From Myxococcota bacterium (lineage in GTDB: Bacteria; Myxococcota_A; SURF-8), in the NCBI GenBank assembly GCA_963674735.2, contig CAXXQS010000001.1, positions 1,024,001 to 1,088,000 on the forward strand: DNA of 64,000 nt, read 5' to 3'. Shown piece by piece: positions 3,380 to 27,552 of this stretch. Each line of letters starts with the position of its first letter. Positions within the stretch are counted from its first letter, which is position 1. The notes beneath the pieces were generated by a model. The model was not told the origin of the DNA and searched no databases. It saw only the letters and a list, made by a program, of their open reading frames with translations. Both the position numbers and the translations under genes were made by a program.

Positions 3380-4987
3380 ATGCAGATTTTGAACATCCGA
3401 CGGTTTGGGCTGGTATTGATTTGCGTTCTGGTCCTGCCGGCTTTGCTAGCCTGCTCGGACTCGAATTCGCAAAATGGCAAAGATTCCGATGGTGATTTGG
3501 ATTCAAGTGAAGCGGCTTGGAACGAGGATGGAGAACTTGATACGAAATCCGAACTTGCCGAAGAGGAAATCGAGTTTGAGGAAGACGGCGATCGGGACGT
3601 AGAAGCCGAACTCGATATGGAGCTGGAAGAGGTCGAGCCTGAATTGGAGTGGGAAGATCCGGGTCTGGATTCATATTACGGATCGTTGGCGTATCAAGCC
3701 GCAGCGACCGGTTTTTTCCGTGTGGAGGAAATTGGTGGGCAATGGTGGCTGATCACTCCCGACGGTCATCCTTTCTTTTCGAACGGCATCAACGTGGTCA
3801 ACTGGTCCGGCACCTGCACGCACGATGGCGTTTGTCATTACCGTGAAACGTGTACCGAGAAATACGGCGATAGCGCGACTTGGAGCGATGCCCAGATTCC
3901 ACGGATGGAGGAATGGGGCTGGAATACGGTCGGAGCCTGGAGCTCGTACAACGAATTCGTAGGGCGCTTTCCGTATACGATTATCGTCTACAATGCCGGG
4001 GTTAACTGGGAGGTCGTCGGCGACACGGCCGGGCCGCTCGATTTCTTTACGGAAGCCTTTGCTCAGCGTGTCAGTGACGCGATCGGCAATGTGGTGCCAA
4101 ACTATGTTGATGATCCTTGGCTCATCGGGTATTACTTCGACAATGAGATGCACTGGGGCAAGGATTTTCCGCGTGAGGGCGTCTCTTACACCGCGCACTT
4201 GTTCGACGAATATTTCAAGAAAGATATAGCAGCATCACCCGGAAAAGAGCGGCTGCTTGCGTTTTTGCAAGAAAGTTACACAGATCTTGCCTCCCTGGCT
4301 GTCGACTTCGAATTCGTGGCAGCCGACTGGGCCGCATTGGGACTTCTAAGCAAGCTCAAGTCTCGCGGAACGGAAGGAGCTGAAGCCACCCGAGCGGCCT
4401 GGACGGGCGTGGTTGCGGAGCGCTACTTCGGTCTGATCGATACCGCCTTTCGCGCCATTGATTCCAATCACATGAACCTGGGGACGCGCTTCGTCAGCCA
4501 GCTTTCGCCCAAGGCGGCGTTGGAAGTATGCGGCCGCTATGCCGATGTGGTGACGATCAATTTCTACGATCTTACGGATGGGCTGGCCGATGTGTTATCG
4601 GATATGGACCCGGATTATTGTAAAGTAGACGATTACCTGCGTTGCCACCACGAAGCCAGCGGCAAGCCTATCATGATCACCGAGTGGGGGTTTCGCGCCC
4701 GTGATGCCGGGCTTCCAAACAGCTATCCGCCGATTTATCCCATCCTCGATACGCAGGTAGACCGCGCCGATGCGTATGAAAACAAAATGCGCGAAATCCT
4801 GGCGCGTCCGTGGCTGGTGGGTCAACACTGGTTTTTATATGCCGATCAACCGCCGGAGGGCCGTTTCGATGGGGAAGACAACAACTTCGGCCTGGTTACC
4901 GAGGCGGATGTTCCCTACGACGTTCTGGTGGAACGCTCGGCGATGATGCACGGCGAAATCTACAAGCGATTGCTGGGCGTGGAATAG
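3380..4987 (+). CDS. Lipoprotein with acidic linker and GH50 (beta-agarase-like) glycoside hydrolase domain
   Basis: Lipobox LLA-C, D/E-rich linker, and GH50-like motifs ATGFFRVE..GQWWLITPDG, DDPWLIGYYFDNEMHW, ITEWGF, HWFLYADQP..GRFDGEDNNFGLV. Confidence 0.75.
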   Translation: MQILNIRRFGLVLICVLVLPALLACSDSNSQNGKDSDGDLDSSEAAWNEDGELDTKSELAEEEIEFEEDGDRDVEAELDMELEEVEPELEWEDPGLDSYYGSLAYQAAATGFFRVEEIGGQWWLITPDGHPFFSNGINVVNWSGTCTHDGVCHYRETCTEKYGDSATWSDAQIPRMEEWGWNTVGAWSSYNEFVGRFPYTIIVYNAGVNWEVVGDTAGPLDFFTEAFAQRVSDAIGNVVPNYVDDPWLIGYYFDNEMHWGKDFPREGVSYTAHLFDEYFKKDIAASPGKERLLAFLQESYTDLASLAVDFEFVAADWAALGLLSKLKSRGTEGAEATRAAWTGVVAERYFGLIDTAFRAIDSNHMNLGTRFVSQLSPKAALEVCGRYADVVTINFYDLTDGLADVLSDMDPDYCKVDDYLRCHHEASGKPIMITEWGFRARDAGLPNSYPPIYPILDTQVDRADAYENKMREILARPWLVGQHWFLYADQPPEGRFDGEDNNFGLVTEADVPYDVLVERSAMMHGEIYKRLLGVE

Positions 4988-5078
4988 GGCGATCGATTCG
5001 TCATTTCGCGTCACTTGAGCTCGGCTACCCGGCGGTGTGAGCCTGGATGTTTGAGAGAGTGGATTCTCGTATTAGGGC

Positions 5079-5107
5079 TTGACACGCCGCGTCATGGTCG
5101 TTATACT
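5079..5107 (+). promoter_or_regulatory. sigma70 promoter
   Basis: TTGACA-N17-TATACT, followed by AAGGAGG RBS at 5131-5137. Confidence 0.75.
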
Positions 5108-5143
5108 CAGCGAAACTGGCCATTCAGCTTAAGGAGGCCTGTC

Positions 5144-5917
5144 ATGCCCGATGCTCGTCAGACTTTGCAAACGATTGGACGCGCCGCTGCAACGGCGGGA
5201 GTTTTTGTTGGTCGAAAAATTGCGCAAGGCTACAACAGTATCGATCCTGACGTGGTGCGTCACCTGGCGCAGGTTCCGTTGCTGAGCTATTCGTTGTTCA
5301 TCTCGCGACGCGATCCCATCGAAGCAGGTGAGCCGGATGGTCATCCGCCGTTGATCTTCGTTCATGGTTTGGGCGGCAACCGGGGCAATTTCTGGCCCAT
5401 GGCGCTCTTTATGCGCTTCTCCGGCCGCAAACGCAGCTACAAGATTCACTTCGATGGTAGCCAGAGCTTCGATGATATGGCAGCCGCACTGGCGCGTTTT
5501 GTTCGTGACGTGCAGGAGGCAACCGGCGAGTCGACCGTCGAGGTGGTGGCGCATTCCATGGGCGGGCTGATCGCGCGTCTGGCGATTGTCGATTACGATC
5601 TGGGCGATGCTGTGCGTACGCTGATTACTTTGGGGACGCCGCACAAAGGGACTTTCCCGGCGCGTTTCGCGAATACCGACCACACGCGGCTTTTACGACC
5701 GGAATCGGAGTTGATTCGCCACTTGGAGGCGCACCCACTTCCGGCGCATATCCGCACGGTGTGTTTCTGGAGCAAAAACGACCTGCTCGTGTTGCCCGCC
5801 GAATCGGGCGTGTTGGATGGGGCGGAAGCGGTCGAATTGACGCCTTTCACCCATTACAGTTATCTACTCGATCCCAAGGGCTGGTCGTCGGTCGCCCATG
5901 CTCTGCAGCAGGTATAG
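5144..5917 (+). CDS. Alpha/beta hydrolase (esterase/lipase family)
   Basis: FVHGLGG oxyanion motif, AHSMGG nucleophile, LGTPHKG, D..V and C-terminal H. ATG 5144 follows a strong RBS; the ORF track start at 5015 is likely too long. Confidence 0.85.
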   Translation: MPDARQTLQTIGRAAATAGVFVGRKIAQGYNSIDPDVVRHLAQVPLLSYSLFISRRDPIEAGEPDGHPPLIFVHGLGGNRGNFWPMALFMRFSGRKRSYKIHFDGSQSFDDMAAALARFVRDVQEATGESTVEVVAHSMGGLIARLAIVDYDLGDAVRTLITLGTPHKGTFPARFANTDHTRLLRPESELIRHLEAHPLPAHIRTVCFWSKNDLLVLPAESGVLDGAEAVELTPFTHYSYLLDPKGWSSVAHALQQV

Positions 5918-7556: not shown

Positions 7557-7573
7557 ATACTCTTGAATCGGTT

Positions 7574-8011
7574 ATGAAAGGAGTTGTGAACGTGTTGGCT
7601 ATCGCTTTATTTGAGACCCGTGTTGCTCCGCGCTTCGATTTCGCTCCGGCGTTTCGTTTGGTGGAAGAAAAAGCGGGTCAGACCCAAGCCGTGGATGTGG
7701 CGGCGCAAGATTGGCGAGCGGATGAACGGGCGATGCGTTTGGCGGAGCGGGGCGTCGACGTCCTGATCTGTGGAGCGATCGATCGGCAATCGGCTGAACA
7801 ACTTGTGCGCCAGGGCATCCGTGTGCTGGATTGGGTCAGCGGCGAAGCTGATGACGCGCTAAGCGCCTTTCAAAGTGGTGAACTGCGCTCACACCACCGT
7901 CTGGGTCCGGGAGGCCGCTCGCGCGGATGCTGGCGCATCCAGCGGCGTTGCCGTGGAGGAGGACGACAGGGTGGGGGAGGTGGACGGGGTCGCCGAGGAG
8001 GATGTTCGTAA
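7574..8011 (+). CDS. NifB/NifX-family (FeMo-cofactor-binding-like) protein with Gly/Arg-rich tail
   Basis: RVAPRFDFAP, GVDVLICGAI, GIRV..WVSG motifs. True start may be GTG 7592. Confidence 0.8.
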   Translation: MKGVVNVLAIALFETRVAPRFDFAPAFRLVEEKAGQTQAVDVAAQDWRADERAMRLAERGVDVLICGAIDRQSAEQLVRQGIRVLDWVSGEADDALSAFQSGELRSHHRLGPGGRSRGCWRIQRRCRGGGRQGGGGGRGRRGGCS

Positions 8012-8033
8012 CCGATTTGAAAGGAGGCATGCG

Positions 8034-8378
8034 ATGCCTAGAGGTGATCGACGAGGACCGATGGGGCAAGGACCGAGAAGCGGACGTGGCTTAGGCTATT
8101 GTTCGGGGAATGATCAGCCCGGTTGGGCCGCTGATGGTGCGGGAATGGGTTTTGGACGTGGAGGAGGCCGTGGTGCCGGTCGCGGGCAGGGGGGCGGTTT
8201 TGGCCGGGGCCGCCGGAACTGGGCGAACTATAACGATGCGCCGCCTCCGCCGATGAACGCAATTCCGAATGAAACCGCCGATGTGTCGGCCGAATTGGCG
8301 GAATTACGCGAAGAGTTGCATGAATTGAAGGCGTTGATCAAAACGCAGATGACCGAAGATTCGGAACCGGATAACTGA
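8034..8378 (+). CDS. DUF5320-family protein
   Basis: MPRGDRRGPMGQGPRSGRGLGYC N-terminus, GRG-rich middle, C-terminal coiled coil; AAGGAGG RBS at 8021. Confidence 0.85.
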   Translation: MPRGDRRGPMGQGPRSGRGLGYCSGNDQPGWAADGAGMGFGRGGGRGAGRGQGGGFGRGRRNWANYNDAPPPPMNAIPNETADVSAELAELREELHELKALIKTQMTEDSEPDN

Positions 8379-8425: not shown

Positions 8426-8450
8426 ACCGATGCGGAGAAGGTTTGAAAAG

Positions 8451-9506
8451 ATGATGTTTCCATCGAGAATGTGGGGGCTGGCGCTTCTGGCTACAATGCT
8501 GGTTTTACTAGCGTTGCCGGGCTGTCAGGGTGAGGATGACGACGAATCCATGTCGCCTGATGACGGAGATCTGGAGTTGGTGGACGGCGACCGAGATTTG
8601 GATTTTTCCGATGCCGAGTTCGATTCGGAACCGGAAGCCGATTCCGACCTCGATGGTGATGCCGATGAGGCTCCATTATCCGATGGCGATTTGGAAGAGA
8701 GCGGTTGTATCCAAGACCCCGAACGTGATCTCGATCCGGTTGAACAGGATGAGCCGGATGGCGATGTCGATTCCGAAATCGACGCAGACCCGGATCCGCA
8801 AGAATGCGATGGTACTGATTCCGAAATGGATGATGAGTCGGATGCCGATCCGATGGAAGCCGATTCCGAGACGGAAATCGAGGAAGAAAATGATCCTTGT
8901 CCCTTTACCGATATGGTGCTGATGGGTGATGACTCGTGTATGGACCGTTATGAAGCTTCACGATCCGATGCCACGGCATCGTCCGGTGGCATTCAAACCG
9001 GGGCTGCCCAAAATGTGGCGGGGGTTATTCCATGGACTCCGGTGACATTGTCTCAGGCGAGAGGAGCCTGCCAACTGGCGGGAAAGCGGTTGTGTGGTCC
9101 GGCGGAATGGGTGTCGGCCTGCCGCGGGAAAGATCTGTTGATTTACACATATGGGAATACTTACGATGCCGCTATCTGTAATGGCATCGATACATTCTGT
9201 CATTGCGGTGCAGGTTCCGCCTGCGAAGACGAACCGGTGTGTCCGTTTCCAAATTGCCGACAGACCTGCGGTGCGGCTTTCCATGTTATGCCGACCGGCG
9301 CGTTTCCGGATTGCCATAATCTCGAGGGGGTGATGGATCTGAACGGCAATGTATGGGAAATCGTGGATCTCGATGACGGATACGAGCATTTTCGTGGGGG
9401 TGCCTACAACTGTGGTGATTCCGAGACATTGCATCGCTGTGATTATGATGCCACCTGGGGACCATCCGCCAAAGGTTTTCGCTGCTGTGCCGATCCATCC
9501 GATTAG
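8451..9506 (+). CDS. Lipoprotein with long acidic DGD stalk and FGE/SUMF1 (C-type lectin fold) domain
   Basis: Lipobox LPG-C, about 120 aa D/E-rich region, then MDRYEAS..GKRLC..EW..AC..DLNGNVWE..RGG..GFRCC. Start may be 8430. Confidence 0.8.
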   Translation: MMFPSRMWGLALLATMLVLLALPGCQGEDDDESMSPDDGDLELVDGDRDLDFSDAEFDSEPEADSDLDGDADEAPLSDGDLEESGCIQDPERDLDPVEQDEPDGDVDSEIDADPDPQECDGTDSEMDDESDADPMEADSETEIEEENDPCPFTDMVLMGDDSCMDRYEASRSDATASSGGIQTGAAQNVAGVIPWTPVTLSQARGACQLAGKRLCGPAEWVSACRGKDLLIYTYGNTYDAAICNGIDTFCHCGAGSACEDEPVCPFPNCRQTCGAAFHVMPTGAFPDCHNLEGVMDLNGNVWEIVDLDDGYEHFRGGAYNCGDSETLHRCDYDATWGPSAKGFRCCADPSD

Positions 9507-10889: not shown

Positions 10890-13800
10890 TTAAAACAAAC
10901 TGATTGAGAAATGGAAACGCCAATTGTCTTCGTGGAGCTCTTTATCGGGATTGAGATTCCAGCCGATTTCCAGGCTGATATCTCCAACGGGAGTGCGGTA
11001 ATGCAAGCCACCGCCTGCCGAGCTTTTATAGCGGTCGAGACGGAAATCGATATGGTCCGGATCGATCCACAAACTGCCAGAGTCGACGAAAGCTCCGGCA
11101 TAATAGCTTTTATAAACCGGAATGCGGAAGTCGGCCTTTAACAGCGTAAAGGCATCGCCGCCCTCCGAGGGAGTGTCGTAGGTGTAAACCGACTGACGTG
11201 CCTCATCCGATAAGTCGGCGGGATGTATGGCCTCTTCTCCAAAACCGCGCAACGAGGTGCGACCGCCCAACTTGAAACGCTTATCTACCGGAGTGTTAGC
11301 GCTTGAAATATTGTTGATAACACCAATATTGGCGCTGAGACGCAAAACGCTGGGTTGACGGGTGATCGGAATGGGAATGTAGCCCGTCAGCGAGCCTTTG
11401 CTGCGGAAAAGATCGTAGTTTTTGTCACCGAGCAGTGTTTCGAAATACTCGCCCAAACCACTGATGACAACACCCCAAGTGGGATTAAACACACTATCGC
11501 GGAAATCGAAAATAGCTTGGAGCTTGGGAGAAATTTCCCAGGTTTGACCATCTTCGGGGATGAATTCGTTAGCGCGGATCGCTTCGAATCCAGTGGTGAC
11601 CGAATCGACGTAAGCAAATTCGTTGATTTGCGCCAGAGTCAGATACGGGATGTATTCGGTATCGAAGGCCAGGATGAAGGCATTTTTATCCAGACCATAA
11701 GCGCGTTGCTGGCTGCGCAAGTGCAGCAAATCCGTTCGAATACCGATTTTCGATCCCATCATACTGGGATGGTAAAAACCGACGGTAATTTCCCGCTCCA
11801 GGGAATCGATAACACTTAAGTCATCATACAAAGAGGCGAACTGATCGTCCAGCAGTGCCGGTATGCGGTGGTTGACTTTGGCGCGCAGGTGGAATTCCAG
11901 TGCGCTGCCGAACAGGTTTCGATAGATGAATAAAGTGCCGAATCGTACGCCTTTGTCAGTGGCGATTCCGCCCGACAATTCAAAGCGGCCCGGAGGACGC
12001 TCGCTTACCGATACCACCACTTTCTTTTCCGCTTCCTCTTTCTCCGGTTTCCACGGTTTAACCGTCACCATCTGGAAAATGCCCAGACGCTGAACCCATT
12101 CACGACTGGCAGACATGTCTTTGGGAGTGAGGATGTCGCCATGTTCGAAAGTCAGTTCACGCAGCACCGTCTCGGCACGCGTGCGTTTCAACCCGCTGAC
12201 CAACATGCCGCTGACACGCACCTGGGGGCCTTCGCGAACGGCCAGCATCACATCCGCCAGCCGATGGTCTGGAGTCAGGGTGTAGCTGAGATCCGCTTCT
12301 GCGTAAATCCTTCCTTCGCCAGCGTAAGCGTCACGGATGCGGCGCTGGGCTGCGTCGAAGGCGAGATCGTTGAGCGGTTGCCCAGCTCTGAAACCGAGAA
12401 GCTTGGCCAGACGCCGTTCATCAAGTGTGGATACTCCAAAAATGTTGATTGCACGGATGAAGGTTTGAACTCCTTCATTGACCGTGTAGTGGACTCGCAG
12501 GCGTTGGCCGGTTTCATTGACTTTCAACGCCGGTCGGCTGATTCGGGTGGAGAGGAAACCGTTTTCTCTGTAAAATTGGGTTAGTGCGCGTATCCCATCT
12601 TCGTAAACCGTTGGAATGAAAACTTCGTCGCTGTCCAGACGCTCGGGTCGGGCAAAAGTGGGTTTTTCCCACGCCGGATATCGATTGGCTCGTTCTTCGA
12701 TCCGGTAGATGCTGCGGCGCATAGCCTCGAACGCGGGAGGTTTCAGGCTGTCTTCGTCTTCTTCCACCAGGCGGTCACGCACGAAAGCGAAAAGCTCATC
12801 CTTCAGTTGCTTGCTTTTGAAATGCCAGGTTTCATGGAAAGTCACATCGGTCAGTTTGGTTCGTGTGCCTTCGTGGATTAGGAAGAATACCCGTTTAAGC
12901 CGTTTTCCTTCTAAATCAGTTTGAGGTCGAACTTTGACGTGCAGATAGCCTTCGCGTCGGTAAAAATCGGTCAGGGTTTTCTGGATCCGTTCAAGTGTGG
13001 CGTAATTGTAGGTGAAAACTTCGGGAATCTCGTTCGCAATAGCCGCCTTCAACTCGTTGGGACTATAGTGCTCATTGCCATGGAAAGCTACACGCACACG
13101 CCGCCCCGCTTTAATCGACAGACGTAATTGGCCTTTCGTAAGCAACCTCGATGTCTGCCAGTCAGACTCATCAGCATCCAGGATCGCAATGGTGGTCTCG
13201 GCAAAACCCTCGGCGACGTACTCGCTTCTCAATTGTTTGACGGCTTTCGTGAACGTATCGAGGTCAATACGATCGCCTTTGCGCAACGGAAGCTTGCGTG
13301 CGAGCCAGCGTTTCGGGAAATAGGGATCCCCAAGGAAGCGAATCGAATTGATTGTCACCGGTTCGCCTTCGGTAATCAGATAGCGGATAGTCGTATGGTA
13401 GGGGCTGTGTTGAGGTCGTGATTCGGCCTGTATGGCGGCATCGATGAAACCGTGACGTCGATACAAAACGTTCAACCGTTCGATTTCCTTTTTGAGATCA
13501 TCCGGGAAGACCGTATCGTCTTTGCGGAGCCGCAGAGCACGCGTGAGAATATCGTCGGATAGGGAGTCATTCCCGATGAATTTCAGATCGGAAATGCGGG
13601 TTGTGGGAATGAGCTCAAAACGCAGATCGATGATATTCTCATGCATTTCACCGAAAGCACGCACCTGCGCGAAAAGATCCCGCTCGTAAAGTGTTTGGAT
13701 GGCGTCGCGCAGCATCTCTTCGCTGAATGGCTGACCGGTTTTGACGGAAAGGGTGTCTTTAAATTCCAGGATCTGCTCGTGAAAGGTGGGGTTGATCGAA

Positions 13801-13976: not shown

Positions 13977-13996
13977 GTCCCTGAATGAGTTACAAG

Positions 13997-16900: not shown

Positions 16901-18037
16901 GTCATCGAAGGCGATGCGCCCATTTTCCACGGTAATGGTACCTTGGGCATAACGGAATTCGCTGCCTTTTAGCTGCACTTCTTGTCGATCCGCAACAAAA
17001 CGGATATCGGCGTCCTCCAAAGGTCGGTCCTCGATCCACCCGTCACGCAATTCCAGCGTTCCGTTTACGCGCGGGTTACTCAACGAACCGCTAAAACTGG
17101 CCGATAGTTTCGTTTGGCCACGGAGTTTCGGCAAATCGGGGAGGGTGGTGGAAAGGCGTTCGAGGGGCAGGGCGAGGTCGATATGAAAGCGAGCCTGGCG
17201 GTTGTCGGAGTGCTGATAATCGCCTTCGAACTGCAGATCCACTTCCGGCAAAAACAGGCGGAGTTTCTGGACGGTGAGAGCTTGATCGGCGTATTGTGCA
17301 CGGGCGTGGATGAGGTTGATGGGAGCCACGATATCCTGGAAACGGATGGCGCCACTACCGGTCTCCATTCGAAGAGCGTAACCTCCATCCTGATAATCCG
17401 CTCGGAGGTTGATTCCGTTTAGTTCGCTTGGAGCCTCGTTCCCGGCCTGTAAGACCACCTCACCCTTTGAGACGATCAATTTGTTTATAATTAGAGTGAA
17501 GGGTAGGTCGAACCGATCGTAGTCGGGGTCGTTTTCCCCGGGAGAACCTAATGGCCGCTTGGCGAATAGATCCCAGTTCAGACGCGGTTTTTGAACCTCG
17601 ATTGACTCGATGGTCAAGCGGTTTCGAAGAAGTTGAAAGGGCTGGAAGACGATACGGATGGAATCTGCTTCGATATAGCCGCGTTGCGGGAAGTCGAGGC
17701 TGAGATTTTCCACAACCACGGCAGCGTCCCAAAAGTCCAAAGCAAGATCGGCGTGAACGATGGGGCCACCACCCTGTATGTAGATCAGGCGATTGACCAA
17801 TCCGATCAGGATGTCGGAACCGGAACGGGTGGTTAGAATGCCGAAAAGCAGTCCGATCCCCAGCAGCAGCATAACGAAGAAAAACAGCACGCGCCGTCGC
17901 ATACGCCGCATGCGCTCTCGTGCGGGGCGTCGGGGTGTAGGTGATGGCGTTTTCGATGGCCGTTTTGGCATATCGTGTGTCCGGCTCATTTGCGTGAACA
18001 GGGTCGCTGAGAGGGGAGCGTTGTCTTGATGTGACAC
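13997..18037 (-). CDS. tamB: TamB/AsmA-like translocation and assembly module protein
   Basis: Basic N-terminus plus a single TM, long beta-rich body, DUF490-like C-terminus (LSSDAGLPQADIVSLL, GKEITDKVYLTY, ..KFHLDF); directly upstream of Omp85. Start may be 17971. Confidence 0.82.
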   Translation of the reverse strand: MSHQDNAPLSATLFTQMSRTHDMPKRPSKTPSPTPRRPARERMRRMRRRVLFFFVMLLLGIGLLFGILTTRSGSDILIGLVNRLIYIQGGGPIVHADLALDFWDAAVVVENLSLDFPQRGYIEADSIRIVFQPFQLLRNRLTIESIEVQKPRLNWDLFAKRPLGSPGENDPDYDRFDLPFTLIINKLIVSKGEVVLQAGNEAPSELNGINLRADYQDGGYALRMETGSGAIRFQDIVAPINLIHARAQYADQALTVQKLRLFLPEVDLQFEGDYQHSDNRQARFHIDLALPLERLSTTLPDLPKLRGQTKLSASFSGSLSNPRVNGTLELRDGWIEDRPLEDADIRFVADRQEVQLKGSEFRYAQGTITVENGRIAFDDALSTAISLKLDHVELGHILDNVSPLHSKVTQNQTGTIEMAGVLNPLNLSGKADLTVTDHVVSSVGFHERTEEDIILVVPKGRLKLGLKADRNAFDITNGEVWFGETYFNTVYVHFGFDNQFDYKFASDQFSIADVGQLLHTDFSGRGSLYCEMHGASGNPHLDGWLDMHEVEIEGHRFGHVTSKVAFQGHDLAFNDATATYNRTIFHADVAFDFRQKPTFVDVRGGSDGFYVDDFLQIIHYDRSLSPILDGRMVGTGVLSGQFGDFRGEARIVLPEFSTPQQTFNSAKIEMRLENKDLEFRQVELKNGNAQLFLNGFIHDYRDLDMRIHSSGWQVRDIDFLRDYFGDSDSPAEASGKLLGTFDDPILQAQVLLDPMNLDGKTYEASELHFELSKRYLDINGQLFNHQADYSALFQFDATDRLDLSLRLDEFDPSFYLRKQFEAPLEKSIFSGKIDFKGPMYKLADGTGLARITTLDAELGKIPVTITSPLTIELEKQLFKLEPVMVEGPQTKLQVRGNMDVNGRVEALLKGTAHWSLLTRISDAVQDAQGQVQLNLSLSGKLNDLSILGEAAFQQSRFKLSMLDEPLRGCRGTVLFSADQLELRDVSFNYGGGQAVLNGHTEIDWVNEGMGKTDIRMNVDRIGYRLDDGLLPILSGPLHITGEPWPLNVSGRLNVDDLTYTKSIRWQKQLILDRVVQALKPRKAWHTEKPDPHLTFNIDLKGDRTIQVRNNLASLFLTSDLVLTGTNQQPGLLNTLSTDRGTIYFEHNEFDVIRFVVEFTDTNAIVPRYDIVAETHVKYIDTNQERDVLITLHLSGDMDNPEVKLSSDAGLPQADIVSLLLVGQPTSKSQNDATAAAGLNALSDIYGVDDQIRTQFKLDEFRLTSEYDNSNPSNGGSLVSKLVIGKEITDKVYLTYTTTLGIQQQRGDQQFELKYRLKYFTLSGAWDNDSLEPYGNFGADLKFHLDF

Positions 18038-18104: not shown

Positions 18105-19406
18105 CTAATCAGAAGCATAGTGAACGATGGGGTTGTGATCGAATACGAAATGCTGGTCTTGGCTGAAGTGCACTCCCGAAATCGGGCCGTTTTCGATGGT
18201 GAAATCTTCGTAAAAAGGAACCATCCAGAACATCACGTTTTCAGCTCCGTTATCCTGGCATTCGTCCCAATCCACCGCGCCATCACCGTTGCCGTCATAC
18301 GCGCTACTGCATTCGGGTGTGTCATTGAGCGGATCGAACATGTCGCCCGAGAACTCGGAAGGATGAAAGAGCCCCAGCCAGTGGCCCAATTCGTGAGCCA
18401 TGGTCAATCCCATGATGCGTGGGTAGTATTCATAGCCCGTCATTGCCACCGCGACTCCTGAAAACGGGGTTCCTTGTTTGCCCGCCGGACCGGGTATATG
18501 ACCCGCCATGCCGAGCACGCCGTAAAAATCGCCGCCGAAGGAGTTGATCAGGAACAAGTTTGGATTGTTGTTTTCCGAGGCTACTGAAATTTCGAGTAAG
18601 TCCCGGTACTCGGCGTAAGAATCGATCACGCCGTATTTCTGTACGGAGTTGGCCGAGGCGTCGCGGTAGTTGATCGTGCCGATCTTGATGTTTGCGGTTT
18701 TATAGAGTTTTTTGAAAACGGTTATGCATTCCTGAAAGACTTTGTGATTGTTGGCTGAATTGGCATTGACTCCTTGAACGCCGACGAACCAGATGTTGAC
18801 GTCGATGGACAACCCGGTCGCGTCATCATCGCGTTTGGGTTTCGTGATCAGGTTGAAGCTGAGATTGTTTCCGGCATTGTAGCTGGCGATTTCGACGACC
18901 CACTCGCCGGGAGAGAAAGGCATCTTTGGAGAATTGTTAAGGAAAATGGATAGCGAGGAATCGGAATACCAGTGAAAGATCTGATCATTGAACAAAACGC
19001 CGTCTTGGCCGTCTTGATCGATGCTATAGACCACTTGGCCGTTGGGATCGATCAGGCGAAAGGGATAGATGTAGTTATCGGAATTTCCTTCGATCCAGGC
19101 AATGACTCCGTGGTCGTCTTCCCCGACTTCGAAGACCGCGGCATCGTCGATTTCCATATCCTCGAAATCGTCTAGGTAGGGTTGATTGGGTTCGGATGGG
19201 GCCTGCTGCGGTGGATCGGGAATCGTCGGTTCGGGATTCCCACTGTCGCCATCGCTGTCATCCGGGTTGGAGGATGCGTCGCTGCTATCGATTGGGATGC
19301 AATCTCCGGCATACTCACGTGTTCCGGCCGGACAACTGCCACTGGCACAGGCTGAAAGAATCCAGATGGTGGCGAGCAGTGTAACGAGAACGACCCATTT
19401 TAGCAT
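18105..19406 (-). CDS. Lipoprotein zinc metalloprotease (M43/pappalysin-like metzincin)
   Basis: Lipobox LSA-C; HELGHWLGLFH zinc motif; DPLNDTP; NVM Met-turn; FSQDQ. Confidence 0.8.
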   Translation of the reverse strand: MLKWVVLVTLLATIWILSACASGSCPAGTREYAGDCIPIDSSDASSNPDDSDGDSGNPEPTIPDPPQQAPSEPNQPYLDDFEDMEIDDAAVFEVGEDDHGVIAWIEGNSDNYIYPFRLIDPNGQVVYSIDQDGQDGVLFNDQIFHWYSDSSLSIFLNNSPKMPFSPGEWVVEIASYNAGNNLSFNLITKPKRDDDATGLSIDVNIWFVGVQGVNANSANNHKVFQECITVFKKLYKTANIKIGTINYRDASANSVQKYGVIDSYAEYRDLLEISVASENNNPNLFLINSFGGDFYGVLGMAGHIPGPAGKQGTPFSGVAVAMTGYEYYPRIMGLTMAHELGHWLGLFHPSEFSGDMFDPLNDTPECSSAYDGNGDGAVDWDECQDNGAENVMFWMVPFYEDFTIENGPISGVHFSQDQHFVFDHNPIVHYASD

Positions 19407-19583: not shown

Positions 19584-22514
19584 TCAATATCCCCCAAGTT
19601 GCCCCTGTCCATCGTATGCCAGGGAGCGCAGATATTCCTGCACCATGGATGCGGCATCATCGTTTTGGTAAATCGCATAATGCCCATCATCGGGATACTG
19701 ACAAAGCCCGGAGGTTGCATATCCATCATCCGGTCCCTGGACCGTTTGAGTGGCCGGACGACTCTCAACGGCAATCCCGCGTAACTCCAGCCCAATCACA
19801 CTTTCCGGCACCGGGGGAACCAGCGGCTCGATCAGCGGTGTCCACCCGGCGGTAGCCATGGCATAGGTGGAGTTTTTCGGGGTTTGGTCGTCATTGAAGC
19901 CGGTGGTGACCATGATATTGCGTGCGACGTCGTCGTAAGGGCGCTCTGTCCACAAAGGCGCATAATTGATGGGATCGGTGACTTCGACAATGGATTGAAT
20001 GATCATGAACAGGGGATGCAACTTGTAGGCTTGGGCGGTAGGCAAGACGCCGACCAGATCCAACATAGCCAGGAAATTAGGGTTGGTCCGTTCCATGATC
20101 GTGATCTGAGTCCGGCCGCCCGATCCCGACAAGACATAGCCGTTGATGGTTTCTTTGATCCCGGCCAGAATAGCGCCGACCAGTCCTCCCTGGCTATGAC
20201 CATGGAAGAGAAGATTCGAGGTGTCGATCGGAATCTCGGCTGGACCGGCGTAATCCGCGGTATTCGGCCATGAACTGCAAGTGGCTTGCGACAGATTCAG
20301 CTTCCCGTATTTGATGAAGCTGACCAGGGCAACATTATCCATCACGCCCTGTCGCAGCACCGATCGAGCAGAGAGCGGATTGAGGAAATTGAACGAATAA
20401 TTTTCCAAGTCGTCGCAGGAATACACCTCGGTCGCGCGCTCTCCGTGGAGCGGTTGGTCGATCCCGATCGTCGCTAGTTTGGCTCCCAGCAAGCGGGTGG
20501 AGGTGTCATTGGGATCCGATCCGATATAGCCTTCGTGGGTTCCACAGGTGCCGTGGGAAACTATCACCAATGGCCACCCGTCTTCCGGCGGCGTCGCATC
20601 GGATGGCACACAGAAGGCGAACGCCAGTGATTCCACTTGCTGCACGACCGGATGACCATCGACATCAAACTGAAAGTCGCCCCCCGATATCTCGTAGGGC
20701 TGGGTTCCTGTTTGGAAATTTGGCGAGCTGTAATGTCCGCTAAAGCAGACATAGCCATCGTGAGCGCTTCGGAACGCACAATCCTGCAATGTGCCGGGGA
20801 CGGATCCGACAGGATAAACCTGCCGGAGGTACAGGCTCATATCCCGCGTTTCGGAAAGCGGATCCAACGTGGTGAAAACGGTAGCGGCCCGTACTTTGTC
20901 CGGATCGAGTGTGGCGCTGTTGGATGCCAACCATTCCGCCAACGGCAGATAGGCCCGGCTCAGCTTCGGGTTGTCGATCCATTCGCCGCGATACAGGTCG
21001 GTCATCAGCTGCGTGCGTCCAATCGAGACGGCATCCGTACCGGTGACACCGTCAGTGAGAATCACGGCATAGGTCGTTGCGGGACGGAGCGGGAAGCCAT
21101 CATACGGGGAAACAGCCAGCAGATTCCCATGGGTTTCAAGATTGTTCGGATTCGCCGTCCAATGCCATTCCAGCGGTAAAAGCTGGCCGACGTGAGGGGA
21201 ATCCGGATCGATGTCAAGCAACAGAATCGAAGAAGAAAAGGTCTTTGTTTCTGCTGCCGTCTGCGGTAACGAGTTCAAATCCAAAACATCGGGGAACGTG
21301 AAATAGACCCCCGTGTTGTTGCCGAATCCATCCAGCAAGCTTTCGAAAACACTCACGTATTGGCTGGCAACATAATAGCCTTCCGGATGCTGAGGATCGT
21401 AAGGTGGCAGCGGGAAGCCATCCAGATTGACCAAACCATCGCTACCGATGTAGTAGTCATTGGGATACGGGGCGGAATAAAAGTCAGTTAAATCGATAAA
21501 ATCGAAAAAGGGTGTCATTCCGGAAGCAGGATCCAAGTCGAACAGAGCGACCGGCCACTCGATTTCCTCTTCTTCCTCCGTCTCGTCCTCCAATCCTTCC
21601 ACATCCTGATCTTCATCCACATCTCCATCAACCAAAGCTTCACAGGCGACGGAAAGGGTGTAGTTATATGTGCTGGTGGTGGGAGTATCGACTACGAGGG
21701 TGTACCAATCCTCCACGCCTTTCGACAAAAAGGTTACCGCCTCGTCAGCGGTACCACCATTTGCGGAGTGGTCGAGACAGTTTCCCGTATCGCAGGTGTC
21801 GAGAATAAACAAATCCAGCTCACCCGTCAGGTTGGTGAGGGTTACCGTCACTTCGTTATCTGCAGGAACCGACAGTTTGTAGACGACAGCCTTTCCCGGC
21901 TCATTTAACTCGGCATCACAGGCATAGGAGTCCCATTCGGTGTTGAGCCCGATCACCGTTGTGTGATTGAAGGTTATTCCACAAACGATATCATAGGCGT
22001 TCTGACAAGCGGCCAGTGCATCCGGGTCGATATCGCCATCGCTAATCTCATCCTCGAAGGTTTCGACTTCGGTCTCTGTTTCGACTTCGACTTCAACTTC
22101 AACTTCAGCTTCGGCTTCACCTTCGACTTCGTCCTCGTTCTCCAGGTCACGATCGGAGTCATTATCGACATCACCATCCAGATCCGAATCCTCAATGAAA
22201 TCTTCATCTAAGTCGCCATCGTTGTCGGCATCCTCTTCTCTGTCTGCATCACCGTCGGATGCGGTATCGATTTCTTCATCGAAATCGGTCTCAACTTCTA
22301 TCTCGCCATCACCGTCGATATCATTTTCCGGATCGCCATCGGGCATATCGCCGTCTGGGTCGTCACCATCAGGCTCGTCACCGTCGGATTCGTCCCCATC
22401 TGGTGAATCGCCATCGGGACCGTCACTATCGGTCGTTCCTGAAGAAGAACAGGCCATCAGCATTACAACAACGAATCCCAGAAGCAACCCATGGCACAAC
22501 CCGGTAAGTTTCAT
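19584..22514 (-). CDS. Large lipoprotein: DGD repeat stalk, PPC-like domain, Ig-like region, alpha/beta hydrolase
   Basis: Lipobox LMA-C; xxDGD repeats; PYPND..DGF; PLRPATTYAV; SHGTCG, IDQPLHG, GHSQGG nucleophile, DPINY, C-terminal GH. Confidence 0.8.
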   Translation of the reverse strand: MKLTGLCHGLLLGFVVVMLMACSSSGTTDSDGPDGDSPDGDESDGDEPDGDDPDGDMPDGDPENDIDGDGEIEVETDFDEEIDTASDGDADREEDADNDGDLDEDFIEDSDLDGDVDNDSDRDLENEDEVEGEAEAEVEVEVEVETETEVETFEDEISDGDIDPDALAACQNAYDIVCGITFNHTTVIGLNTEWDSYACDAELNEPGKAVVYKLSVPADNEVTVTLTNLTGELDLFILDTCDTGNCLDHSANGGTADEAVTFLSKGVEDWYTLVVDTPTTSTYNYTLSVACEALVDGDVDEDQDVEGLEDETEEEEEIEWPVALFDLDPASGMTPFFDFIDLTDFYSAPYPNDYYIGSDGLVNLDGFPLPPYDPQHPEGYYVASQYVSVFESLLDGFGNNTGVYFTFPDVLDLNSLPQTAAETKTFSSSILLLDIDPDSPHVGQLLPLEWHWTANPNNLETHGNLLAVSPYDGFPLRPATTYAVILTDGVTGTDAVSIGRTQLMTDLYRGEWIDNPKLSRAYLPLAEWLASNSATLDPDKVRAATVFTTLDPLSETRDMSLYLRQVYPVGSVPGTLQDCAFRSAHDGYVCFSGHYSSPNFQTGTQPYEISGGDFQFDVDGHPVVQQVESLAFAFCVPSDATPPEDGWPLVIVSHGTCGTHEGYIGSDPNDTSTRLLGAKLATIGIDQPLHGERATEVYSCDDLENYSFNFLNPLSARSVLRQGVMDNVALVSFIKYGKLNLSQATCSSWPNTADYAGPAEIPIDTSNLLFHGHSQGGLVGAILAGIKETINGYVLSGSGGRTQITIMERTNPNFLAMLDLVGVLPTAQAYKLHPLFMIIQSIVEVTDPINYAPLWTERPYDDVARNIMVTTGFNDDQTPKNSTYAMATAGWTPLIEPLVPPVPESVIGLELRGIAVESRPATQTVQGPDDGYATSGLCQYPDDGHYAIYQNDDAASMVQEYLRSLAYDGQGQLGGY
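22305..22430 (-). repeat. Pentapeptide (x-x-D-G-D) coding repeat
   Basis: DGPDGDSPDGDESDGDEPDGDDPDGDMPDGD; 15-nt period with synonymous variation. Confidence 0.85.
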
Positions 22515-23101: not shown

Positions 23102-24616
23102 TCATTCGCTTTCGTCGCAAACAATCGAAAATTCGTATTCCAACGGCCATTCCGGTCTCTCTGCGGAAAGCAACGATACAACAAGCTGGTATTGGGTTGA
23201 GGCGATAGCCTCGAAAGCGTAGGTTTCCGCATTTCCCACGGTGCTTGTGTTGAGGATATGTGAGTCGTCACACTCGTGGTGCTCAACAATAAACCGAACT
23301 CTCTCGGGAGTTGTGAAGCTAAGTATGATTTGGCTATCGCGAGCGACTTGTAAGGAATAAGCATCGAGTAATCCCACTTTGCTTGAGTCGATTTCCTCGA
23401 TGCGACCTCGCGCCTGCCAGCCACATTGCAATGCCGGTAGTTCCTCGCAACTCAATGCCGATGAGTCCGTATCGTTATCATCCATGTCGCCGTCACTTGG
23501 GGAAAGGTCGCCGTCGGTTTCTCCCTTACATTGTTCGGTGTCCGTCCCTTCACACACACCCACCTGGTCGATATCCAAGCCTAAGCCGGGACAGCAGGTC
23601 GAATCGGCCGGAGTCCGACAATCCAGAAGCTTGTCCCGATAGCAAAGCGGCCATGTGACGTCCAGGATATATGTATCCGGGCAAGCCTCCGCCAACCATT
23701 GGGTACAAAGATCTGCGCTATCATGACAGGTGTCGTCGCAAGGGATTTCGTCGTAACCGGCTCGCTCGGGACTACCCGCCAACTCCGTATTGTCGTCCGT
23801 CAGTTCGGTCACGTTCGCTCGGCCATCGGTATCCCGATCGCGGACAACTCGAAAGGCCTCGATCAAGGACGCGTTCAATTCCGGTAGAATCTCGGCATTA
23901 TGCGTATCATCGACTTTCAGCACGTCATCGGTTAGGGCCAATTGGCTCCAACGATTATCGGACAACAGCATCCCAAGATCCAAAACCGCCGCCCAGTGCC
24001 GTTCTTCACCGGGCTGCCATTGCAGCGTTTCGCGGGGTGGGACACTCGGCAGCATCCCACCCAGTGCGGTTTCGACTTCAATGGGTATGCGACCTGACAA
24101 CTCGCCCTTCAACGTCATCACGGCTGCGTTCGCAGGTAATCGCCAGTCCAGGGCACAGAAGGGGCGGTCGCCAGGTGCTTGAATTTCCATGACAAACGGA
24201 ACTTCACTCATCAAATTGATCGACGCAATTCCGCGATCAGCCCGCAACAACTCTCCATGCAGCATGTCGCAGGATTCCGCGTCCGCCAGAAACAGTTCTT
24301 CAAGCTGCAAGTGAACATCGTTCCAAATTACCAGACGGTCATCGGCTTGACGGCTATCGACCACCGAAAAGCCGACCACGGTCCGTGCTGGATTGCCATC
24401 GACCGACCCGCCGCCGCAGGGGATGAACTGGTAATCAATCCCGTCTTCCTTGTCGCCATCCGGCGATACGTAGGAGACGTGGGACTCATCATCGCAAGCG
24501 ACCGCCAGGATTCCCATGATCGCGAGTAGGGAGATAATCATCCAATGGGGTGAGCAACCGGTCTTTTTGTTCTTTTTCATCGCTTGAACGGCGTTTCGTT
24601 GGATATTCATGGTCAT
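23102..24616 (-). CDS. Hypothetical Cys-rich lipoprotein with C-terminal PPC-like domain
   Basis: Lipobox AVA-C, DGD motifs, Cys cluster; ATGA overlap with the upstream TIGR02147 gene. Confidence 0.75.
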   Translation of the reverse strand: MTMNIQRNAVQAMKKNKKTGCSPHWMIISLLAIMGILAVACDDESHVSYVSPDGDKEDGIDYQFIPCGGGSVDGNPARTVVGFSVVDSRQADDRLVIWNDVHLQLEELFLADAESCDMLHGELLRADRGIASINLMSEVPFVMEIQAPGDRPFCALDWRLPANAAVMTLKGELSGRIPIEVETALGGMLPSVPPRETLQWQPGEERHWAAVLDLGMLLSDNRWSQLALTDDVLKVDDTHNAEILPELNASLIEAFRVVRDRDTDGRANVTELTDDNTELAGSPERAGYDEIPCDDTCHDSADLCTQWLAEACPDTYILDVTWPLCYRDKLLDCRTPADSTCCPGLGLDIDQVGVCEGTDTEQCKGETDGDLSPSDGDMDDNDTDSSALSCEELPALQCGWQARGRIEEIDSSKVGLLDAYSLQVARDSQIILSFTTPERVRFIVEHHECDDSHILNTSTVGNAETYAFEAIASTQYQLVVSLLSAERPEWPLEYEFSIVCDESE

Positions 24617-25509
24617 CCCCTTTTATGATGATCTTTCGGTTTTGGTATCGAATTGGCTGGTTCGGGTCGTACCAGTTGGAAAAGCTGCACATTCAAGCGC
24701 GCGACTACATCCACGGGTTCATCTTCCTGAATGATTTCCTGTGCTTTTGCTAGCATTTCCAAGGCCAAAGAATGAAGTCTTTCCAATTGATCGAGCGACA
24801 CGGAGGCCGTGATCCCGGTTACCAGACGCTGGTCTTGAGTTTGATTGTCCAGCGATTGTCCGGCCAGACCGATCATATGCCGATGAAAATTGCGCACCGC
24901 AAGCCTGGAAAGTGCGTCAGGGTCGCGGCGATTGTTGACCGAACCGATCAAGGCTTCGACCTGCTGCAAGCGACCATTTTCGTCACGCTGTAAAAAGCCG
25001 AGCTGTTCCAACTTGGCCAGGCCGTCCTTGACCTGTTTGGCGGACAAGCGCGGAACCAGGCGACGGCCGATCCAGGCGGCATCCTCACGGAAATCCGACA
25101 AGTTGACGACCTCTCGCAAGGCCGGGAGATACCATTCGGCGTAGTAATCGTGCGGAATCTGGCTTTTATCTTGATGTATCTGCCGCCGCCGCAAGCGCGT
25201 AATTTTTCGGGCGAGCAGCGAGCGTTCTTCATCCGTTTTCGCCTGGGCAAACTCGGCCAGCAATAAAAGATAGCTCGACGCGTCGCCGACCAACCCGAGT
25301 GCTTTGGCAAAGCGGGCTGCGGCCCGTCGACTCAAGGGGACACGTCCGGCTGCAACTTGCCAGTAATGATTCGACTTGGGTGAATATCCCGCCTTTTTTT
25401 GCAAGTAGCGATACGAAACCTTTGGATTCTGTTCGCGCAAATCCGCGTAGGCATCCGTAAGAAAGCGACAGGCATCCGAATAGTCGAAGATATTAATCCT
25501 GGTTATCAT
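24613..25509 (-). CDS. TIGR02147-family (DUF4423) protein, putative HTH regulator
   Basis: NIFDYSD..FL, SYRYL..KAG, YYAEWY..ALRE, WIGRRLVP, AVRNFHRHMI, LNVQLF. The true start is ATG 25509; the 607-aa ORF extension is antisense to cyclophilin. Confidence 0.88.
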   Translation of the reverse strand: MITRINIFDYSDACRFLTDAYADLREQNPKVSYRYLQKKAGYSPKSNHYWQVAAGRVPLSRRAAARFAKALGLVGDASSYLLLLAEFAQAKTDEERSLLARKITRLRRRQIHQDKSQIPHDYYAEWYLPALREVVNLSDFREDAAWIGRRLVPRLSAKQVKDGLAKLEQLGFLQRDENGRLQQVEALIGSVNNRRDPDALSRLAVRNFHRHMIGLAGQSLDNQTQDQRLVTGITASVSLDQLERLHSLALEMLAKAQEIIQEDEPVDVVARLNVQLFQLVRPEPANSIPKPKDHHKRG

Positions 25510-25519
25510 CGCAAAATCC

Positions 25520-25617
25520 ACACACAGTATGATTGATAGATTAATCTTACCATTACTAGAGATTCTTTCAATATTATTATCGAAATGCTCTATAATAGTG
25601 TGTGTAATTAACACACA
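25520..25617. promoter_or_regulatory. AT-rich divergent promoter region with operator-like palindrome
   Basis: TGTGTGT-AATTA-ACACACA (25599-25617), a third ACACACA at 25520, minus-strand TTGAAA-N16-TAAGAT (25571-25544), and plus-strand TATAAT at 25591. Confidence 0.55.
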
Positions 25618-25869
25618 GAAGTAAAGTTGCAAGATCCCTCGACGCCTCGATCTATTTCGAAAGCATCTTGGAATGAAAATAAAGCCAAACATCCCCGAGC
25701 CTGCCACCTCATCATCACCGAACCGCGCCAGCATCCCAAAAAGTGGCGTTTCAGCCTGCATTCGCTTTTTTTTCGCTTGCGAATTCGCTCCGGCTTGGGT
25801 AAGCATACGGCAGGCGCGCCGGTCACAGGGCGGGCGCACGGGATGAACCTCTAAGCGAATGGGAACGAC

Positions 25870-26376
25870 ATGAAAGCCATATTCGAAACCACCATGGGCA
25901 CCATCGAAGTGGAGCTCTTTGCCGACAAAGCCCCGAAAACCGTCGAGAATTTCGTTCAGCTTGCCAAGGGCGAGAAGGAATGGACCGACCCGAAGACCGG
26001 CGAGAAAACCTCGCGGCCGCTGTACGACGGCACCATTTTTCACCGCGTGATTCCGCGCTTCATGATCCAGGGCGGCGACCCGAAGGGCAACGGAACGGGC
26101 GGTCCGGGCTATCGTTTCGAAGACGAATTTCACCCGGACCTCAGCTTCGATCGTCCCGGCTATCTGGCCATGGCCAACGCCGGACCCAACACCAACGGCA
26201 GCCAGTTCTTCATCACCCAGGTGCCGACTCCGCACCTGACCGGCCGCCACACGATCTTCGGCAAAGTGACCGCCGGGGCCGGTCTGATCAAACAGATCGC
26301 CGAAACCCCCACCGGTCAAAACGACCTTCCGCTTAAGAAGGTGGTTCTGGAAAAGCTGACCATCGTGGAAGACTGA
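25870..26376 (+). CDS. ppiA: Cyclophilin-type peptidyl-prolyl cis-trans isomerase
   Basis: APKTVENF, FHRVIPRFMIQGGDP, MANAGPNTNGSQFFIT, HTIFG; strong codon bias. Confidence 0.96.
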   Translation: MKAIFETTMGTIEVELFADKAPKTVENFVQLAKGEKEWTDPKTGEKTSRPLYDGTIFHRVIPRFMIQGGDPKGNGTGGPGYRFEDEFHPDLSFDRPGYLAMANAGPNTNGSQFFITQVPTPHLTGRHTIFGKVTAGAGLIKQIAETPTGQNDLPLKKVVLEKLTIVED

Positions 26377-26394
26377 TTTTTCTGCTCGACAACG

Positions 26395-26428
26395 TGAAAC
26401 GCCCGACCGCTTGGCCGGGCGTTTTTCA
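26395..26428. terminator. Intrinsic terminator (likely bidirectional)
   Basis: AAACGCCCG..CGGGCGTTTTT between convergent genes. Confidence 0.8.
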
Positions 26429-26475
26429 TTTCTCACATCGCCGAATCGGTTACGTAGCCAGTCCGCCCTTCCTTT

Positions 26476-27552
26476 TCACTCCGCGCATTCCGGTTTGGCG
26501 TTGGCGGTAGCGGAACCGTCGCAGACGACCACGTGCTCGTTGACCAAGTCGGGGTAGAGATCGAGGAGCTGGCAGGTGTAGTAGTCGGGATCGTAGCCGT
26601 GCGTTTTGCAGGTGGAGTAGGCCTCGCGGCCTTCCGTGCCTTCGCGCCAGGAGATGCCGCAATACTGCCCTTTGCAGAAGGGATCGCCCGGGCAGTCTTC
26701 GAGGTTCAAGCAGCCGACGTTGGCGTCTTTCACGCAGTAGCCGATGAGGTAGTTCATTTCATCGTAGGCCATGGCCGAGGCCGCCCCGCGATGGCGCGCC
26801 GCGCAGGTGTAGCCGTCGGGGCAGGGATCCACCGGCGTGCAGATGCGGCAGTCCAGATCGGCGCAGATCGGCTCGTTCACGCCCACCGGAAATGCGTAAG
26901 CACCGCCATAGGGCCACAGTTCGTTCATGTTACCCGCTGGGAAGTATTGGGAGGGATCGAAATCGGTTGTTTCAGGCGTATTGAATGCGCGGTGTGGTCT
27001 TGATATCTCATTATTGGTAGTGAAACTGCTGATCGTTGCGCTACTGAAATAGCAGCCATCGCAATAATCGCTCAGGGCGCATTTATCGTTTGTGTCGTTC
27101 ACACAGAGCATACGGCTGCCATTGAGTGGGCAGTCACCCGACCAGCCCAAACTGCCGTCTTCAAATATCTTGGGTACACAACCTTGATGTTTGTACATGT
27201 ATCCTTCAACACACCAATCAATATCCGGTCCGACACAACTTCGATCCAGGCATTCCTGCAGATCGTCAAGATAAACGGCACAGTCTGTTGAATCGACACA
27301 CGGTCCGCTCAATCGCTCTTTGTAGTATGTTTTCACGCCCCAGAAGCAGATCGTACATAGATCCATGATGGACTCATCAAGCGGGGGAACATAGTCGTAA
27401 TCACATAATTCGACATCGTCTTCCATCACGTCTACATCTCCATCATCATCAGCCGTGTCCTGCGATTCGGAATTGCAGGCGACAAATAACCCAACAAGAA
27501 ACCCGATTAGAAGCAACGAGATGGCCTTGTTGTTTATGTGAAGCATGGACAT
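26476..27552 (-). CDS. Cys-rich hypothetical lipoprotein
   Basis: Lipobox FVA-C, DDDGDVD, more than 25 Cys; GGAG RBS upstream. Confidence 0.8.
   Translation of the reverse strand: MSMLHINNKAISLLLIGFLVGLFVACNSESQDTADDDGDVDVMEDDVELCDYDYVPPLDESIMDLCTICFWGVKTYYKERLSGPCVDSTDCAVYLDDLQECLDRSCVGPDIDWCVEGYMYKHQGCVPKIFEDGSLGWSGDCPLNGSRMLCVNDTNDKCALSDYCDGCYFSSATISSFTTNNEISRPHRAFNTPETTDFDPSQYFPAGNMNELWPYGGAYAFPVGVNEPICADLDCRICTPVDPCPDGYTCAARHRGAASAMAYDEMNYLIGYCVKDANVGCLNLEDCPGDPFCKGQYCGISWREGTEGREAYSTCKTHGYDPDYYTCQLLDLYPDLVNEHVVVCDGSATANAKPECAE

Follow-up and report, generated by a model that had tools for sequence, protein, structure and literature searches.

The 64,000-nucleotide window analyzed here (the whole stretch from 1,024,001 to 1,088,000 of contig CAXXQS010000001.1, assembly GCA_963674735.2, from a Myxococcota bacterium) encodes six predicted lipoproteins whose acidic stalks share the tripeptide Asp-Gly-Asp (DGD): a GH50-like (beta-agarase-related) protein, an FGE-sulfatase-domain protein, a metzincin-like protease, an alpha/beta-hydrolase, an orphan protein, and a Cys-rich protein. 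The pattern in the stalks of these six unrelated lipoproteins is real and lineage-specific, and DGD is a genuine word, not a composition effect. Our preferred reading, held tentatively and at somewhat less than an even chance, is that (P)-D-G-D-x-(D/E) is the word that typifies the acidic disordered stalks carrying this lineage's hydrolytic lipoproteins, and that its register relative to the lipidated Cys reflects a handling constraint together with a hinge at the stalk start.

With the lipobox Cys counted as +1 and each DGD placed by its first residue, five of the seven window lipoproteins begin their first DGD at +12 to +14. Composition-preserving shuffles of the residues from +2 to +N (N = 25, 30, 40, or 50) never gave five first DGDs in that interval (0/20,000; maximum three), and a post hoc-corrected statistic, in which any tripeptide and any 3-wide position window were allowed, reached five in 0/3,000 shuffles. 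The word is also concentrated in these proteins: 25 of the 27 DGD tripeptides in the 35-open reading frame (ORF) gene set belong to the six lipoproteins, 24 of them in mature chains and one in the upstream extension of the hydrolase's longest-ORF call. Other secreted proteins of the window (DctP, BamA-like, and TamB) are without DGD. Because the 24 mature-chain sites use eleven codon combinations, the signal lies at the protein level.

At the far end of the window, a giant ORF of >4,306 amino acids (51066-63998, minus strand) runs past the window end and contains 27 stretches of a MopE-like putative metal-binding motif (PF11617) along with immunoglobulin-like domains. This protein is 12.9% Asp and 13.7% Gly, yet it has no DGD against 9.8 expected.

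The lipoprotein genes and their tethers

Lipoproteins were predicted with our own lipobox regular expression, without SignalP or LipoP. The scan gave 12 matches in the window, five of which were discarded as ORFs of 110-132 amino acids nested in or antisense to larger genes; the seven full-length ORFs that remain all lie at 3.3-30.8 kb of the window. Their lipoboxes (LLAC, LPGC, LSAC, LMAC, AVAC, FVAC, and FLAC) are preceded by hydrophobic leaders containing Lys or Arg, and by this regular expression all seven have the positive n-region, hydrophobic h-region, and lipobox Cys of Sec/signal peptidase II substrates.

The GH50-like lipoprotein (3380..4987, plus strand; lipobox LLAC) matches the beta-agarase structure 4bq2 in the PDB (E=7e-40). 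Its Cys codon is at 3452, followed by DGD at 3488-3496 (+13) and 3584-3592 (+45) in an acidic tether that extends to about +70. The FGE-sulfatase-domain lipoprotein (8430..9506, plus strand; Pfam PF03781, E=6e-8) has its Cys codon at 8523 and DGD at 8562-8570 (+14), with more at +21, +44, +54, and +79 along an acidic stalk of ~125 residues. In the protease (18105..19406, minus strand; weak ulilysin and M43 matches), the Cys codon at 19349 opens a small Cys motif that spans +1 to +17 and includes AGD at +14, and DGD follows at 19253-19245 (+33). The 976-residue alpha/beta-hydrolase (19584..22514, minus strand) has weak matches to the TIGR03502 VolA/Pla-1 phospholipase family and to PPC and S9. 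From its Cys codon at 22451 the first DGD comes at 22415-22407 (+13), then PDGDx units at 5-residue spacing, for 12 DGD altogether, among them two in internal linkers (+138 and +275).

The orphan lipoprotein (23102..24616, minus strand) is encoded downstream of a TIGR02147 gene; it has its Cys codon at 24496, a single N-terminal DGD at 24460-24452 (+13), and internal linker DGDs at 23515-23507 (+328) and 23494-23486 (+335). Scoring of the ~8,000 candidates that best shared words with it, drawn from a database of 5.8 billion, gave no homologue besides itself. The Cys-rich lipoprotein (26476..27552, minus strand; Cys codon 27477) has its sole DGD at 27444-27436 (+12) and no match in Pfam, NCBIfam, or the PDB. 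An in-window contrast is provided by the 5'-nucleotidase lipoprotein (29190..30776, plus strand; Cys codon 29295; Pfam Metallophos and 5_nucleotid_C), which has neither an acidic tether nor DGD.

The original prediction, which had proposed a positionally fixed DGD after the anchor of unrelated lipoproteins, gave the first-DGD coordinates and offsets of the five proteins, and the protease AGD at +14 and DGD at +33, exactly, as a recount confirmed. It was also right that the 5'-nucleotidase lacks the motif, that DGD recurs in acidic stalks and inter-domain linkers, and that cargo and intervening sequence are non-homologous. All-against-all BLASTP matched only low-complexity stalks, the best match (FGE protein versus hydrolase, E=0.004) falling inside the stalks, and the cargo domains are unrelated. 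The N-terminal coding DNA (leader plus tether) is likewise non-homologous, 20 of 21 pairs scoring within the shuffle range, and the spread of a shared leader module was rejected on this ground.

Along the tethers, Ser/Thr/Asn make up a fraction of 0.35 at +2 to +7, Pro is most frequent at +8 to +10, Asp (0.33) and Gly (0.21) at +11 to +13, and Glu rises after +17. Across 147 DGD sites of the lineage, Pro stands at -1 in 51 and Asp or Glu at +4 of the motif in 79. The Asp+Glu fraction is 0.45-0.50 in the three long stalks (GH50-like, FGE, and hydrolase) and 0.29 in the protease stalk. On a charge-hydropathy plot with the usual boundary formula, the disordered side takes in the tethers and excludes the 5'-nucleotidase N-terminus. 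By this measure the tethers contain the unstructured segment of >22 residues between Cys and globular domain that marks a disordered linker, with only ~20 residues used for the orphan and Cys-rich segments. Most GH50-like homologue alignments span ~82% of the query, and both the locus matches and the first invariant column begin near residue 95. At the DNA level, the hydrolase stalk contains a weak 15-nt repeat (22360-22400). Distal to its PDGD units is a 6-nt tandem repeat (22080-22131, minus strand) coding for (Glu-Val)n.

Register and lineage distribution among relatives

Searches with three window proteins extended the comparison. The GH50-like search gave 168 matches, of which the best 120 were examined; of the 19 relatives with at least 46% identity and a lipobox, 11 place the first DGD at +8 to +17, one places it at +77, and seven have none. 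Among the same best 120 of 168, distant homologues (labeled, where a label is given, as Planctomycetes, Actinobacteria, or archaea) mostly have no acidic stalk, and only 2 of 30 with a lipobox have DGD within the first 40 residues. For the hydrolase, the best 120 of 473 matches include ten relatives with at least 41% identity and a lipobox; in nine of these the first DGD falls between +8 and +15, and in the tenth it is at +4. One homologue, P0129, is a 713-residue paralogue encoded outside the window on the same 2,694,912-nt contig, with a DGD tether from +15. Another, P0123, was left out because its N-terminus is cut; this protein, from a Myxococcales metagenome-assembled genome (MAG), contains a perfect (ETDGD)n run. 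In long homologues of the hydrolase, DGD linkers also lie ~33 to 53 residues ahead of the catalytic anchor. The presence of DGD in internal linkers here, in the hydrolase, and in the orphan identifies it as a linker word, not only an N-terminal tag.

In the protease family (best 150 of 2,293 matches), just 2 of the 89 members with a lipobox place the first DGD at +8 to +17, which means that the motif is no general feature of Myxococcota. Of the four closest full-length homologues in that set, two have DGD after the small Cys motif, at +35 and +24 (P0242 and P0246, whose lipoboxes were missed by the regular expression and read by eye), and two have none. The small Cys motif itself (C-x-x-G-x-C-P-x-G-T-x-x-Y-x-G-x-C; 19299-19349, minus strand) directly follows the protease lipobox. 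Among these best 150, it is common to the four closest homologues, its end reading YAGDC, YAGRC, YQGDC, YNGEC, or FNGQC, and the protease AGD at +14, noted earlier, belongs to it, its likeness to the DGD register being coincidental. An unrelated lipoprotein in another locus (L001, 11756 onward, plus strand) has a similar CPxGCPxGT module ahead of its DGD stalk. Where such a module follows the anchor, the DGD stalk begins past it, at +33 in the protease and +35 in the L001 protein.

A scan of genome contigs with the BamA-like protein as query found no relative; the scan with aligned GH50-like homologues kept 80 loci totaling 1.21 Mb, the closest labeled as Myxococcota or Deltaproteobacteria MAGs. 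In locus L001, all four lipoproteins have DGD in the first 60 residues, with first positions of +9, +11, +11, and +35. In locus L002, one of three does (at +14), and an NlpD-like LysM+M23 lipoprotein there is without DGD. In the remaining 78 loci, only 3 of 89 predicted lipoproteins have DGD in this range. These counts agree with the lineage specificity originally proposed, and they support DGD tethers being confined to a narrow, Myxococcota-affiliated lineage.

For pooled statistics, we assembled a lineage set of 44 proteins (37 from outside the window), chosen by identity to window proteins and not by DGD content. Of these, 28 have the first DGD at +8 to +17, one has it before +8, three have it beyond +17, and 12 have none. 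A count of 28 was reached in 0/5,000 trials of each of three nulls: the shuffle null (mean 3.0, maximum 11), tether rotation (9.7, maximum 19), and column permutation, which keeps position-specific composition (5.1, maximum 13). Column permutation also gave 12.6 expected DGDs versus 115 observed. In the 47 acidic tethers found among 318 non-redundant lipoproteins, DGD is the most enriched tripeptide (90 versus 17.2 expected, z=18), with PDG second (28 observed versus 3.8 expected). The earlier expectation of a positional peak above composition-preserving shuffles was thus borne out in both the window and the lineage. The fixed position near +13 held only in part: the tight +12 to +14 register is peculiar to this window, and the first DGD of relatives ranges over +8 to +17, with 23 of the 37 non-window proteins in that broader interval and only 8 at +12 to +14.

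DGD occurs before +8 in 1 of 44 lineage tethers versus 13.4 expected under rotation. First DGDs have a median position of 12, whereas successive copies are a median of 6 residues apart (Mann-Whitney p=5e-9). The position of the first copy bears little relation to stalk length: in the GH50-like family, stalks of 53-104 residues all have first DGDs at +8 to +17 when P0012 is left out, and Spearman rho is 0.08 once it is counted in (n=13). In the hydrolase family, N-terminal regions of 65-427 residues have first DGDs at +4 to +15 (rho 0.17). These comparisons tie the register to the Cys, independent of stalk length and cargo domain. The suggestion that DGD is an N-terminal tag stands in its registration to the Cys and is overstated in two other respects, since the word also occurs deep inside proteins and is missing from 7 of the 19 GH50-like orthologues and two of the four closest full-length protease homologues.

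Stalk word, sorting signal, or by-product

Read from the anchor outward, the sequences run from the lipidated Cys through a Ser/Thr/Asn/Gly-rich, DGD-free spacer of ~7 to 11 residues, often to a Pro, and then to the first DGD at +8 to +17 (mode +11 to +13). Beyond it, DGD units at roughly 6-residue intervals or a Glu-rich stretch lead to the catalytic domain. In our favored reading, the spacer would be the stretch that the lipoprotein-processing and Lol machinery must keep extended, and anionic, tight-turn DGD units would begin where the chain exits that machinery. The stalk may then serve as a hydrated, cation-binding spacer, through charge density and not canonical loops, that keeps the enzymes away from the membrane. 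The Cys register would accordingly reflect handling plus a hinge at the stalk start, not a cargo-specific address label. PDGD sequences would be chemically suited to cation binding and turn formation, PDG being a sequence that favors tight turns.

In LolCDE structures from Escherichia coli, the substrate chain extends from the acyl pocket into the LolE cleft, with contacts at residues 13-15 of Lpp, 14-16 of Pal, and 12-14 of LolB (PMC12846838). The cleft contact at +12 to +16 is thus in the same register as the DGD mode here, from which we infer that the spacer is kept plain for machinery handling. Disordered linkers also aid outer-membrane targeting, and E. coli outer-membrane lipoproteins likewise have a flexible tether between anchor and domain (bioRxiv 10.1101/2021.01.05.425367). 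The difference is that the E. coli linkers and cleft contact are sequence-independent, whereas a specific word is enriched in the tethers here.

Several points weigh against the stalk-word reading. The sequence independence of the E. coli LolE contact (PMC12846838) is one of them. In tethers that have just one DGD, that copy too lies within +8 to +17 (as in P0002, P0003, P0006, P0009, P0010, L002_+8772, the orphan, and the Cys-rich protein), and since pure exclusion would let a lone copy sit anywhere in a 50-100-residue stalk, the first copy seems to be under positional selection. The handling model leaves these lone copies unexplained, and this leaves room for a true recognition role. In addition, the disorder call rests on composition only, no Lol component of this lineage is encoded within the 64-kb window, and the lineage set is phylogenetically non-independent, consisting of three protein families and two loci that were all reached via homologues of DGD proteins.

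Such a recognition role would make the first DGD a Cys-registered sorting or export signal, read by the Lol transporter cleft or a dedicated outer-membrane exporter, that sends hydrolytic lipoproteins to the surface, vesicles, or matrix; we consider this unlikely, though a serious possibility. Lone copies are kept at +8 to +17 even where the remaining stalk is Glu/Ala-rich (P0009 and P0010 at +13, the L002 protein at +14), the register is tied to the Cys independently of stalk length, and DGD at +12-14, +13-15, and +14-16 matches the positions at which LolB, Lpp, and Pal touch LolE (PMC12846838). Carriers include agarase-like, esterase-like, and metalloprotease-like enzymes, and non-carriers include the 5'-nucleotidase and the NlpD-like protein. 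There are also precedents. In Myxococcus xanthus, of the same phylum, Lys at +2 directs lipoproteins to the inner membrane and Ala at +7 directs FibA to the matrix, so that a sorting determinant lies beyond +2 to +4 (PMC3222651). Bacteroidota use an acidic lipoprotein export signal (CS(D/E)2, K-(D/E)2, or Q-A-(D/E)2 at +2 to +5) that is experimentally required for surface exposure; like DGD, it lies just past the lipidated Cys of hydrolytic lipoproteins and is missing from periplasm-facing ones (PMC6222051). Neither known signal is the one found here. None of the seven window lipoproteins has Lys at +2 or Ala at +7, their +7 residues being Q, D, P, T, V, D, and K, and DGD differs from the M. 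xanthus determinants in residue type and position. The Bacteroidota signal has no Gly and no repeats, while DGD needs its Gly, recurs along the stalk, and is known from the sequences of Myxococcota-affiliated genomes. The shared motif here is at +12 to +14 (window) or +8 to +17 (relatives), and Asp or Glu at +2 to +5 occurs in some tethers, inconsistently. Set against a sorting signal are a position that drifts over 10 residues, the orthologues without DGD (7/19 GH50-like and 2/4 closest full-length protease homologues), the protease and L001 proteins with DGD only at +33 and +35, the use of the same word in internal linkers hundreds of residues past the anchor, and the fact that no receptor candidate was identified.

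The DGD units could instead be specific Ca2+ sites, stiffening the stalk or linking it to the head groups of anionic lipid or lipopolysaccharide at a set anchor distance, which we regard as improbable. The very high Asp density noted above and the Asp or Glu at +4 of the motif in 79/147 sites are consistent with it, and Asp-rich disordered motifs are described as binding Ca2+ at about 100 uM (PMC8391695). EF-hand, Excalibur, and thrombospondin type 3 loops (DxDxDG) are likewise short Asp-Gly-rich motifs of extracellular proteins, but most stalk sites have no Asp at -2 and -4, and regularly spaced Cys or Glu ligands are absent. The pattern [DN]x[DN]xDG fits only 3 of 24 window sites (FGE +44; hydrolase +78 and +92) and 9 of 147 lineage sites, so the Ca2+-binding tag first proposed was not upheld in the form of a canonical loop. 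A Pfam search of three stalk segments with E up to 10 matched no family, the TSP_3 and Excalibur repeat families being unmatched in three homologues as well, and membership of these families is rejected; the Asp- and Gly-rich MopE-repeat protein, moreover, has no DGD at all. A neutral origin, with low-complexity slippage producing mere acidic filler in fast-evolving stalks, seems to us similarly improbable. It would account for the wide variation among orthologues in stalk length and DGD copy number (1 to 25), the weak 15-nt repeat, the (ETDGD)n run in P0123, and the dispensability of DGD in some orthologues. However, DNA-level tandem repeats are weak, on which ground slippage alone was rejected; the 24 sites use eleven codon combinations; and the word persists across orthologues at 41-62% identity whose flanks are unconserved. 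All three nulls are rejected, and the DGD-free zone before +8 and the Cys register of lone copies are both left unexplained by slippage. Finally, DGD might mark a post-translational event, either anchor-releasing cleavage or Asp modification. A short motif at a set membrane distance could be reached by a membrane-bound enzyme, but we give this very little credence: no protease or modifying enzyme in the window is linked to the motif, and many repeats per stalk plus internal linkers fit a single processing site poorly.

The stalks also recall the SD repeats of staphylococcal Sdr/Clf proteins, acidic low-complexity stalks that project a functional domain from the envelope, and the hydrolase stalk aligns weakly to SD regions in NCBIfam. 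The SD stalks, unlike the tethers here, are C-terminal, LPXTG-anchored, Gram-positive dipeptide repeats. Membership of the MSCRAMM SD-repeat families was rejected at scores of 27.6, 26.5, 19.2, and 16.6 bits versus cut-offs of 2,500, 1,700, 1,150, and 999. Our literature searches, with most subscription journals outside them, found no publication describing DGD in lipoprotein tethers.

To our knowledge, lipoprotein surface selection is understood in detail for only a few lineages, examples being Slam, Bam-RcsF, and the export signal of Bacteroidota. A short motif whose spacing from the anchor is kept across unrelated enzymes, and whose position matches that of the E. coli LolE grip, offers a handle on surface selection in Myxococcota-like bacteria. 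If DGD were a sorting signal, lipoprotein export would have a second acidic signal, of independent origin outside Bacteroidota, and this signal would represent a sequence-specific version of the LolE contact that E. coli makes sequence-independently. If it is only a stalk-start hinge, the tether just past the Lol-handled segment can still be under lineage-specific selection, and DGD would remain a sequence marker for the secreted hydrolase set of these uncultured organisms.

Neighboring genes

The window also encodes Lgt, the prolipoprotein diacylglyceryl transferase that is the first enzyme of the lipoprotein pathway (45872..46813, minus strand; Pfam PF01790, E=4e-46); LspA and Lnt were not found within its 64 kb. 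Next to the orphan lipoprotein gene is the TIGR02147 (DUF4423) family gene (24613..25500, minus strand; NCBIfam TIGR02147, E=5e-55; Pfam DUF4423), whose stop overlaps the start of the orphan gene by 4 nt. A short ORF with a Gly/Arg-rich tail (GRGGGRGAGRGQGGGFGRGRR) lies just upstream of the FGE lipoprotein gene (7875-8378, plus strand); it is possibly not a genuine gene.

Genes for an Omp85 protein with six POTRA stretches and an adjoining 1,346-residue TamB-family protein (10890-18037, minus strand) form a pair for outer-membrane biogenesis, located amid those of the DGD lipoproteins. At the start of the window (3-2967, minus strand), genes for a pyridine-nucleotide-disulphide oxidoreductase and an FlpD/MvhD-ferredoxin protein suggest that this Myxococcota-affiliated organism has an anaerobic electron-bifurcating metabolism.

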